64,000 bases of DNA, from the NCBI RefSeq assembly GCF_036507355.1, contig NZ_AP027877.1. One strand, given 5' to 3'. Numbering within the stretch: position 1 is the stretch's first letter; each line of letters opens with the position of its first letter. Shown one piece after another: positions 24,934 to 27,610 of the stretch. Made by a program: the position numbers and the translations under genes. The notes beneath the pieces were generated by a model, which was not told the origin of the DNA, ran no database searches, and was given only the letters and a program-made list of their open reading frames with translations. The stretch is from Escherichia coli (GTDB lineage Bacteria; Pseudomonadota; Gammaproteobacteria; Enterobacterales; Enterobacteriaceae).

Positions 24934-24951
24934 ATCCTACACCTGTAAGAA
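24934..24951. promoter_or_regulatory. candidate EvgA box upstream of ydeP
   Basis: ATCCTACA-CC-TGTAAGAA, an imperfect inverted repeat resembling the EvgA consensus (TTCYTACA-N2-TGTARGAA as I recall it). Confidence 0.45.
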
Positions 24952-25194
24952 AATCCGCGCACAATTGAAGCCAGAGTCTTATTTTTTATATTAAAAAATA
25001 TGTTAATTTAAACACTATGAGAGATGATGCTTACCTTATCGTATTTAATCTATTGTTTAACGATAATAGATTAAAAATAGAAAGAGAGTAGTCCCCTACT
25101 CTTATATATCCATGTTGGCGATAATCCCTTTGTATGTACTGTGCATCATCGCTATTAAAAATCCTAATAATTCATTTCCACACAGGATAAGTAG

Positions 25195-27474
25195 ATGAAG
25201 AAAAAAATTGAATCCTACCAGGGTGCTGCCGGTGGTTGGGGTGCTGTTAAATCCGTAGCGAATGCAGTACGTAAGCAGATGGATATACGCCAGGATGTTA
25301 TTGCCATGTTTGACATGAATAAGCCAGAGGGCTTTGACTGTCCGGGTTGTGCATGGCCAGATCCTAAGCACAGTGCGTCATTCGACATTTGTGAAAACGG
25401 CGTAAAAGCAATCGCCTGGGAAGTCACGGATAAGCAGGTAAACGCCTCTTTCTTTGCTGAGAATACGGTTCAATCATTACTTACCTGGGGAGACCACGAG
25501 CTTGAGGCTGCGGGGCGACTCACTCAGCCTTTGAAATATGATGCCGTCAGCGACTGTTACAAGCCATTAAGCTGGCAACAAGCTTTCGATGAAATTGGCG
25601 CACGCCTTCAAAGCTATAGTGATCCCAATCAGGTTGAATTCTATACTTCGGGCCGCACTTCCAATGAAGCTGCCTTTCTTTATCAGCTTTTTGCCCGTGA
25701 ATACGGGAGCAATAACTTTCCCGACTGCTCCAACATGTGCCATGAACCGACAAGCGTGGGTTTGGCAGCGAGTATCGGTGTAGGTAAAGGGACCGTGTTG
25801 CTGGAAGACTTTGAGAAGTGCGATTTAGTCATTTGCATTGGGCATAACCCTGGTACAAACCACCCTCGCATGCTGACTTCGTTGCGCGCTTTAGTGAAAC
25901 GGGGCGCGAAAATGATCGCCATAAACCCTCTACAGGAACGTGGCCTGGAGCGATTTACCGCACCGCAAAACCCGTTTGAAATGCTGACGAACTCTGAGAC
26001 TCAGTTGGCCAGTGCCTACTATAACGTGCGCATCGGTGGCGATATGGCGTTGCTCAAGGGGATGATGCGCCTGTTAATTGAGCGCGATGATGCTGCAAGC
26101 GCCGCAGGTCGGCCCTCATTGCTGGATGACGAATTTATTCAAACGCATACCGTCGGCTTTGACGAGCTACGCCGTGACGTTCTCAATTCCGAGTGGAAAG
26201 ATATCGAACGTATTTCTGGGCTAAGTCAGACTCAAATCGCCGAACTGGCTGACGCATATGCCGCTGCCGAACGCACCATTATCTGTTACGGAATGGGGAT
26301 CACTCAGCACGAACATGGTACCCAGAATGTACAGCAACTGGTCAATCTGCTGTTGATGAAAGGTAACATTGGCAAGCCTGGTGCGGGTATCTGCCCACTA
26401 CGTGGACACTCTAATGTACAGGGCGACCGAACCGTCGGTATCACCGAGAAACCATCTGCAGAGTTTCTGGCTCGCCTGGGTGAGCGCTATGGCTTCACAC
26501 CACCTCAAGCACCTGGACATGCTGCAATTGCCAGCATGCAAGCAATATGTACAGGGCAGGCTCGAGCATTGATCTGCATGGGGGGCAACTTTGCACTGGC
26601 AATGCCAGATCGGGAAGCGAGCGCTGTACCGTTAACGCAATTAGATCTGGCGGTACACGTAGCCACTAAGCTTAACCGCTCTCATCTGCTGACCGCACGG
26701 CATAGCTATATTCTGCCGGTTCTGGGACGTAGCGAGATTGACATGCAAAAAAGCGGTGCGCAGGCGGTAACCGTTGAGGATTCAATGTCGATGATTCATG
26801 CCTCGCGTGGCGTGTTAAAACCCGCCGGTGTAATGCTGAAATCAGAGTGTGCAGTGGTCGCGGGAATCGCACAGGCAGCACTACCCCAGAGCGTGGTAGC
26901 CTGGGAGTATCTGGTGGAAGATTATGATCGCATTCGCAATGACATTGAAGCTGTGCTGCCAGAGTTCGCCGACTATAACCAGCGCATCCGACATCCTGGA
27001 GGTTTTCACCTGATAAATGCAGCTGCTGAAAGGCGCTGGATGACGCCGTCAGGTAAGGCTAATTTCATTACCAGCAAAGGGCTGTTAGAAGATCCCTCTT
27101 CAGCGTTTAACAGTAAGCTGGTCATGGCGACAGTACGCAGTCACGATCAGTACAACACGACGATTTATGGTATGGATGATCGTTATCGAGGGGTATTCGG
27201 TCAACGAGATGTGGTCTTTATGAGTGCTAAACAAGCTAAAATTTGCCGTGTAAAAAACGGCGAAAGAGTTAATCTTATTGCGCTTACGCCAGACGGTAAG
27301 CGAAGCTCTCGCCGCATGGATAGATTAAAAGTGGTCATTTACCCTATGGCTGACCGCTCACTGGTGACCTATTTTCCAGAATCGAATCACATGCTAACAC
27401 TTGATAACCACGATCCATTAAGTGGCATTCCTGGCTATAAAAGTATTCCGGTTGAATTAGAACCATCAAATTAA
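25195..27474 (+). CDS. ydeP: acid-resistance molybdopterin oxidoreductase YdeP (759 aa)
   Basis: 759-aa ORF, formate-dehydrogenase-like molybdopterin domain organisation; position upstream of safA-ydeO. Confidence 0.9.
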
Positions 27475-27487
27475 TGCCTCTTCTCAC

Positions 27488-27518
27488 TTCTTCTGCTGTC
27501 ATCCGCACAGCAGAAGAA
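27488..27518 (+). terminator. hairpin downstream of ydeP (12-bp perfect stem, 7-nt loop, no clear U-tract)
   Basis: TTCTTCTGCTGT-catccgc-ACAGCAGAAGAA, 14 bp after the ydeP stop. Confidence 0.45.
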
Positions 27519-27592
27519 TCCCTCATTGACTATTATCGCGCAATTTGCTCACATGGATTAAATTAAACTACATACTATAAGATATAAACTTC

Positions 27593-27610
27593 TGCCTACA
27601 GCTGTAAGAA
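27593..27610. promoter_or_regulatory. candidate EvgA box upstream of safA-ydeO
   Basis: TGCCTACA-GC-TGTAAGAA, same motif as upstream of ydeP, ~110 bp before the safA start. Confidence 0.45.

Follow-up and report, generated by a model that had tools for sequence, protein, structure and literature searches.

The genes ydeP and safA-ydeO of Escherichia coli are each preceded by an 18-bp inverted repeat, and in the strain studied here they lie close to sequence that has been rearranged by mobile elements. This raises the questions of whether the two repeats are EvgA boxes and whether EvgS/EvgA control of the two transcription units is intact in this strain. The window, a single stretch of DNA of 64,000 nucleotides, contains both units with their promoters and the rearranged neighborhood. 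The features discussed below are collected in Table 1.

Table 1. Features of the ydeP-safA-ydeO region and its surroundings, with positions counted from the first letter of the window
Feature	Position	Strand	Description
Tn3-family transposon, 5.6 kb	3603-9241		interrupts lsrD; resolvase, 988-aa transposase, PAS-chemoreceptor gene
IS1, two direct copies	15006-15773, 18721-19488
ydeQ	23947-24861
EvgA box upstream of ydeP	24934-24951	.	ATCCTACACCTGTAAGAA = ATCCTACA-CC-TGTAAGAA
ydeP promoter body, box to -10	24952-25013	+	blocks A.TCCGC.CA, TGAAG, AGTCTTATTT
Extended -10 of ydeP	25001-25009	+	TGTTAATTT (TG-T-TAATTT), read from sequence
ydeP coding sequence	25195-27474	+	759 aa, intact; NCBIfam NF007406 equivalog, 1831.7 bits, residues 1-759/759
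Stem-loop, 14 nt past the ydeP stop	27488-27518	+	-17.5 kcal/mol, z -3.8; no T-run
EvgA box upstream of safA-ydeO	27593-27610	.	TGCCTACAGCTGTAAGAA = TGCCTACA-GC-TGTAAGAA
safA promoter body, collinear with that of ydeP	27611-27672	+	blocks A.TCCGC.CA, TGAAG, AGTCCTATTT
Extended -10 of safA	27660-27668	+	TGTTATATT (TG-T-TATATT)
safA coding sequence	27722-27919	+	65 aa; Pfam PF17073 SafA on identical locus
ydeO coding sequence	27994-28755	+	253 aa, intact; NF007407 equivalog, 606.6 bits, residues 1-253/253

Two inverted repeats and the EvgA boxes of K-12

Both repeats are 18-bp inverted repeats of the form TTCYTACA-NN-TGTARGAA. The first is located in the ydeQ-ydeP intergenic region and the second in the ydeP-safA intergenic region. 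When the 64-kb window was searched for CCTACANNTGTAAGAA with up to 2 mismatches, 2 matches were found (0.34 expected); these were the two boxes, both with 0 mismatches. Compared with TTCYTACANNTGTARGAA, each box has 1 mismatch.

The EvgA consensus was tested on the 18 kb around evgAS of K-12, where it produced 4 matches (0.27 expected), solely upstream of emrK-evgA, frc (yfdW), and yfdX. A half-site weight matrix was trained on four K-12 boxes (emrK/evgA, frc, and yfdX), with the boxes of ydeP and safA excluded. Using this matrix, we found that the ydeP box scored 23.1 bits and the safA box 19.7 bits, which placed them at ranks 1 and 2 among about 64,000 positions of the window (mean, -23.6; standard deviation, 7.9). 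The third-best position, which is within a coding region, scored 8.0 bits. Since the two boxes stand about 12 bits above the next-best site and are unique in the window, a chance origin of the two repeats was excluded.

The sequence was also compared with that of K-12 MG1655. The EvgA repeats of ydeP and b1500 (safA)-ydeO in K-12 belong to the same genes and have the same intergenic positions; both intergenic regions are 99% identical between the two strains, without indels, and the boxes are in register. The safA box equals the K-12 safA box at all bases, while the ydeP box agrees with its K-12 counterpart at 17 of 18 bases. The sole difference between the two strains in the boxes is at position 2 of the ydeP box, which is T here and G in K-12. 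The T moves the left half-site nearer to the consensus: the K-12 allele, AGCCTACA, scored 18.5 bits on the matrix, compared with 23.1 bits for the T allele. With exact 36-mers, the T allele was found in 1,769 records and the G allele in 1,757, each representing about one-third of the complete E. coli genomes. The T allele is not peculiar to this strain, and the ydeP and safA alleles found here are both common ones.

In K-12, the boxes through which EvgA acts on ydeP and safA-ydeO have been known for two decades. Masuda and Church are said to have found an 18-bp inverted repeat upstream of the operons under direct EvgA control; EvgA reportedly gel-shifted this repeat, and its mutation at ydeP and b1500-ydeO reportedly abolished induction. 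In K-12, box mutations are reported to abolish specific EvgA gel shifts. The EvgA sites of ydeP and safA-ydeO were reportedly mapped by Masuda & Church 2003 (Mol Microbiol 48:699) and by Itou et al. 2009 (Biosci Biotechnol Biochem 73:870). A full-text literature search for the consensus or the exact 16- to 18-mers returned nothing useful, the primary site-mapping papers being outside its reach. Other studies report that EvgA directly regulates ydeP and emrKY (PMC8174306), that the safA-ydeO promoter is bound by EvgA (PMC9496106), that an EvgA site is present at every directly regulated gene (PMC4283999), and that EvgA binds inverted repeats 5' of both yfdX and yfdW (frc) (PMC3720670).

From their position in K-12 and the motif match at independent EvgA targets, the two 18-mers can be identified, with a probability of about 0.9 as judged from sequence, as the known EvgA boxes of ydeP and safA-ydeO, with no new feature involved. 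The initial annotation had noted the same 18-bp architecture twice, and its letters and coordinates were exact. Its description of the repeats as EvgA-box-like agrees with the scores of a matrix built from other targets and with the positional orthologues in K-12, and its assignment of the genes to ydeP, safA, and ydeO was borne out, with full-length equivalog matches for YdeP and YdeO.

Inverted half-sites 2 bp apart are also found in the 7-2-7 heptamer pairs of NarL, a member of the same family, but the NarL half-site (TACYYMT) has another sequence than that of the EvgA box and serves another regulon. NarL/FixJ-family members share TAAGAA/TCCTA-like half-sites, and the TAAGAA-AA/AC-TCCGC at the right edge of both boxes is, by eye, loosely RcsAB-box-like. 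The repeats could on these grounds be recognized mainly by another regulator of the family, e.g., RcsB or GadE. However, the exact 8-2-8 structure recurs at other EvgA operons and flanking evgAS, and the literature assigns the direct control of ydeP and safA-ydeO to EvgA (PMC8174306, PMC9496106, and PMC4283999). We consider recognition mainly by another regulator very unlikely.

Promoter geometry downstream of the boxes

The ydeP and safA promoters can be aligned without gaps over about 80 bp, from the box through the extended -10 element. In the 62 nt 3' of the box, the two promoters are identical at 39 of 62 positions. Other registers gave 16.9 ± 3.5 identities with a maximum of 32, and 39 identities were attained in 0 of 20,000 shuffles. 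The blocks common to both promoters are A.TCCGC.CA right after the box, TGAAG, AGTCYTATTT, and the extended -10.

The TG of the safA extended -10 is located 50 nt past the end of the box, at the same offset as in ydeP. At both promoters, TG stands one base 5' of TAnnnT and the -35 is weak or absent, as in the extended -10 class of sigma-70 promoters. A promoter consensus scan found no -35/-10 pair at either extended -10 and no -35 match. The ydeP 5' leader has been taken as -178 from the start codon (PMC11210196). With a leader of 178 nt, transcription of ydeP would begin at about 25017; relative to this start, the -10 hexamer occupies -13 to -8 and the box is centered at about -74.5. The safA start is predicted from the ydeP geometry to be at about 27675-27676. 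The only promoter that the consensus scan called for ydeP, TTGAAG-16-TATATT at 24965-24992, was rejected, as safA lacks a counterpart of it and the 178-nt leader does not agree with it.

The K-12 boxes of emrK/evgA, frc, and yfdX have the same 8-2-8 structure as the two boxes studied here and the same distance between box and -10. In ydeP, safA, emrK, frc, and the promoter-proximal yfdX box of K-12, a -10-like hexamer is found 53 to 59 nt past the end of the box. The boxes had been described as lying at plausible activator distances, and the position of the box center together with the box-to-(-10) spacing common to emrK, frc, and yfdX supports this description. When these five promoters were compared in pairs, 10 of 10 pairs gave a positive z (0.5 to 6.7), and z was 0.4 or lower in 11 control pairs, for which the shared box was taken in its evgA-facing orientation or the distal yfdX box was used. 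Between box and -10, the promoters differ in sequence: emrK shares AGTCCT with ydeP and safA, at an offset equal to that in both, whereas frc and yfdX share TCTCTGATT.

Because of the common geometry and the shared blocks, the promoters were read as one architecture. The ydeP and safA promoters would then be two copies of one EvgA-responsive cassette of about 80 bp, a reading that we propose only tentatively, with the odds somewhat against it. EvgA-activated promoters in general may share a rigid architecture; its suggested content, which is just as tentative, is a box center near -74, spacing that is fixed and free of indels, an extended -10, and conserved blocks at about -65/-56, -51/-47, and -42/-33.

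From the geometry observed at the two promoters, we infer that phosphorylated EvgA, a response regulator of the NarL/FixJ family, would bind each 8-2-8 repeat as a dimer. Binding to the repeat, whose center lies about 74 bp 5' of the transcript start, would activate a promoter with an extended -10 (TGnTAnnnT) and no usable -35. To judge from position alone, the activation would most likely be the recruitment of RNA polymerase from upstream, with EvgA in a class-I-like position. The relief of H-NS silencing of AT-rich regions may make an added contribution, since the two intergenic regions are AT-rich (32% and 38% GC, compared with 49% for the window) and H-NS binds ydeP and ydeO promoter fragments (PMC2984483).

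Conservation within and beyond the boxes

Among the E. coli haplotypes (12 for ydeP and 14 for safA), the boxes varied only at the outermost 1 to 2 bases and in the 2-bp spacer, and the half-site cores, CCTACA and TGTAAGAA, were invariant. We then compared the region with that of L012, a genome labelled E. coli that is 84% identical (about 16% diverged) over ydeP-safA-ydeO. The identity of the EvgA boxes was 94% for ydeP and 89% for safA. The upstream flanks were 55% identical at both promoters and contained indels, and the promoter body, from box to start, was 83% identical for ydeP and 77% for safA, without indels in either. The single core change in L012 was ACA to ACG in the ydeP box, a base that the emrK/evgA box of K-12 also carries. 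In L012, both extended -10 elements have kept their TGn, and the safA element is TGCTATATT. The pattern in the half-site cores is that of purifying selection.

It could be argued that the two 18-mers are functionless chance palindromes, for which nothing speaks except that the motif is short. Their uniqueness in the window, their margin over the next site, their invariant cores in E. coli, and their retention in L012 although the flanks fell to 55% all argue against this explanation, which is extremely improbable.

When 100,044 species-representative genomes were scanned for exact matches to the extended box pattern, the only matches came from one diverged genome labelled E. coli and from two contigs, which seem to be E. 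coli contaminants in metagenome bins; no extended box pattern was found in other genera among these genomes. The absence of a match in other genera agrees with the report that safA-ydeO and evgAS do not occur outside E. coli (PMC5706723).

We also analyzed the positions between box and -10. Within E. coli, 7 of the 39 positions at which ydeP and safA agree were polymorphic, compared with 13 of the 23 positions at which they differ (P = 0.004). In L012, 32 of the 39 shared positions were conserved, compared with 11 of the 23 differing positions (P = 0.009). The lower polymorphism and the better conservation of the shared positions in L012 indicate that constraint reaches past the published 18 bp.

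One explanation is that more than one EvgA dimer is needed, so that the blocks between box and -10 would be further protein contacts, either low-affinity secondary EvgA sites toward the -35 region or the site of a partner such as RcsB. There is a precedent for such an arrangement. EvgA is named after its homologue BvgA. BvgA promoters have TTCCTA-type half-sites in an inverted repeat; the primary site is remote from the core promoter, on its upstream side, and several BvgA dimers spread cooperatively to the -35 region. The BvgA promoters of Bordetella (fha and ptx) belong to a regulator of the same family (PMC9496106). In contrast to the cooperative spread of BvgA dimers, the matrix scan of the promoters studied here gave no support for secondary EvgA sites.

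Additional contacts would account for the gapless identities between the two promoters, which no shuffle equaled, for the equal offset of AGTCCT in emrK, for the avoidance of shared positions by polymorphism and their better retention in L012, and for the lack of indels between box and -10 in that genome. Furthermore, a block xTCYTA, found at about -41 to -36 in ydeP, safA, and emrK, resembles TTCYTA, the first six bases of the EvgA half-site. However, this block scored 0.72 bits on the half-site matrix, the value obtained for GTCTTATT; frc and yfdX have the different block TCTCTGATT at the same offset; and a single ancestral promoter duplication combined with ordinary promoter constraints could yield the same pattern. 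Additional contacts at the two promoters are therefore unlikely on balance, though by no means negligible. They would refine the mechanism, and the boxes would remain EvgA sites.

Two candidates for further EvgA sites were considered. The first, AGTCYTA as a secondary EvgA half-site, was unsupported by the weight matrix at 0.72 bits and is retained as a low-probability variant. The second was an additional upstream box at safA, AAACTACA-TAC-TATAAGAT at 27565-27583, with half-sites of 5.4 and 5.7 bits. It was rejected because of its 3-bp spacer, a left half that is polymorphic within E. coli, and its loss in L012.

Integrity of the control region and its significance

The gene context of the region was assigned by homology, which extends to 5,389 of the 5,426 complete E. 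coli genomes. E. coli 95-3192 is collinear with the window, at 99.06% identity, over a stretch that runs from 19489 and reaches at least 48003. The genes ydeN and then ydeM follow 3' of ydeO. The stem-loop downstream of ydeP is likely the ydeP 3' end/terminator hairpin; in L012, its stems are kept and its loop is replaced. Many plasmids carry TnAs1/Tn1722-type copies that are 100% identical to the Tn3-family transposon in lsrD. The segment bounded by the two IS1 copies stands in place of hipBA, the fimbrial major-subunit gene, and the start of the chaperone gene. The breakpoint nearest to the ydeP box, an IS1, is at a distance of 5.4 kb, and the rearrangements have not affected the two promoters, the hairpin 3' of ydeP, or any of the three coding sequences.

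The initial annotation had suggested that EvgS/EvgA control of ydeP and safA-ydeO is intact despite the nearby rearrangements. For the elements in cis (the boxes, the -10 elements, their spacing, and the three coding sequences), this suggestion held. The trans part lies beyond it: because evgAS is outside the 64-kb window, intact control is established for the cis elements only. It was reported that some natural E. coli variants of EvgS fail to respond to acid, although the pathway is otherwise conserved (PMC5706723).

Control could thus be inoperative in this strain with the cis elements intact, if evgAS were lost or disrupted by a mobile element or if EvgS were unresponsive to acid. The position of evgAS beyond the window, the active mobile elements within it (the Tn3-family transposon and two IS1 copies), and the natural isolates with an EvgS that is unresponsive to low pH (PMC5706723) are compatible with such a defect. 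On the other hand, virtually all sequenced E. coli have evgAS (PMC5706723), the boxes and promoter blocks show no decay, and the ydeP and safA alleles are common. An evgAS defect in this strain is, on this evidence, distinctly improbable.

The observation of the two repeats is correct but ordinary, as the boxes are already known and occur here as common alleles. For annotation, its value lies in showing that the uppermost part of the EvgA > YdeO > GadE acid-resistance cascade has intact cis elements, though a transposon and IS1 have reshaped the neighboring lsr, hipBA, and fimbrial region. Only mildly new is the evidence for a conserved promoter cassette of fixed geometry that is common to ydeP and safA and, more loosely, to other EvgA targets. 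If the cassette reading is true, there would be functional contacts beyond the published 18-bp box, made for example by secondary EvgA dimers as at BvgA promoters or by a co-regulator such as RcsB. If the shared blocks are real contacts, they would provide a refined view of EvgA activation and a sequence for predicting EvgA targets.

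Natural variation in the ydeP EvgA box

The second position of the ydeP EvgA box (24935 in the window) is a T/G polymorphic site, with T in the window and G in K-12. Each allele is carried by approximately one-third of the complete E. coli genomes. Using a half-site weight matrix trained on other K-12 EvgA targets (emrK/evgA, frc and yfdX), we found that the T allele scores 4.6 bits higher than the G allele. The two alleles may differ naturally in affinity.

The ydeQ-ydeP intergenic region of E. coli JML285 (L011; NZ_AP024114.1, approximately 1100-3000) carries an IS100 insertion, which takes the place of the sequence up to the final base of the box's left half-site. 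The ydeP EvgA box of this strain is a naturally occurring split-box mutant.

A diverged lineage, L012 (NZ_JAATUR010000028.1, labeled E. coli SCPM-O-B-8794), is only 84% identical over ydeP-safA-ydeO and lacks the neighboring fimbrial genes and ydeNM. Both EvgA boxes are retained in L012, with a change of ACA to ACG in its ydeP box. Such divergence is unusual for a genome under an E. coli label.

Relatives and rearrangements of the region

None of the complete E. coli genomes in the collection exceeded 99.1% identity over 24700-28000 of the window, and the exact YdeP protein of the window was matched only in read-archive assemblies. Complete RefSeq genomes thus do not include this strain. A contig assigned to a metagenome bin named "Candidatus Nanosynbacter" (L013; JARKOR010000108.1) and one from an uncultured-bacterium bin (L014; USHE01000194.1) were also found to contain E. 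coli ydeP-safA sequence, the latter with 98% identity to the window. Both contigs are likely contamination of their bins.

The Tn3-family transposon in lsrD encodes a 186-amino-acid resolvase, a 988-amino-acid transposase and a 525-amino-acid PAS-domain chemoreceptor-like product. Many Enterobacterales plasmids carry TnAs1/Tn1722-type copies to which this transposon is 100% identical. Between the two IS1 copies lie a remnant of the ECSE_1600-family autotransporter gene and an unassigned open reading frame of 238 amino acids; compared with E. coli 95-3192, the window lacks hipBA, the gene for the fimbrial major subunit and the chaperone gene's 5' end. Collinearity with E. coli 95-3192 would place gadB and gadC, downstream effectors of the EvgA-YdeO-GadE cascade, within the window at approximately 39600-42800.

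Mobile elements and repeats in the window
Feature	Coordinates	Location	Remarks
Tn3-family transposon, 5.6 kb	3603-9241	within lsrD	short target duplication
IS1, two copies	15006-15773 and 18721-19488		direct orientation
Inverted repeats	25040-25105	long ydeP 5' leader	AATCTATT...AATAGATT; GAGAGTAGTCCCCTACTCT
Hairpin, 12-13 bp	27488-27518	shortly 3' of ydeP stop codon	T-run absent
Box-like inverted repeat	27565-27583	10 bp upstream of safA box	AAACTACA-TAC-TATAAGAT, 3-bp spacer

Elements flanking ydeP and related EvgA promoters

In L012, the stems of the hairpin after ydeP are kept while its loop is replaced. Since a hairpin with conserved stems follows the ydeP stop codon, ydeP and safA-ydeO are probably transcribed as separate units. 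In other E. coli haplotypes, the repeat-bearing part of the ydeP leader has a 5-bp insertion, ATACT or ATACC. The box-like repeat upstream of the safA box was considered as a further functional box; because it is polymorphic within E. coli and absent from L012, it is probably non-functional.

In the K-12 sequence (L002), the frc and yfdX promoters (15400-15524 and 16400-16518) have the block CTCTCTGATT in common, at an identical offset of 23 nucleotides past the EvgA box. These promoters appear to be EvgA promoter cassettes related to each other, forming a second such pair.
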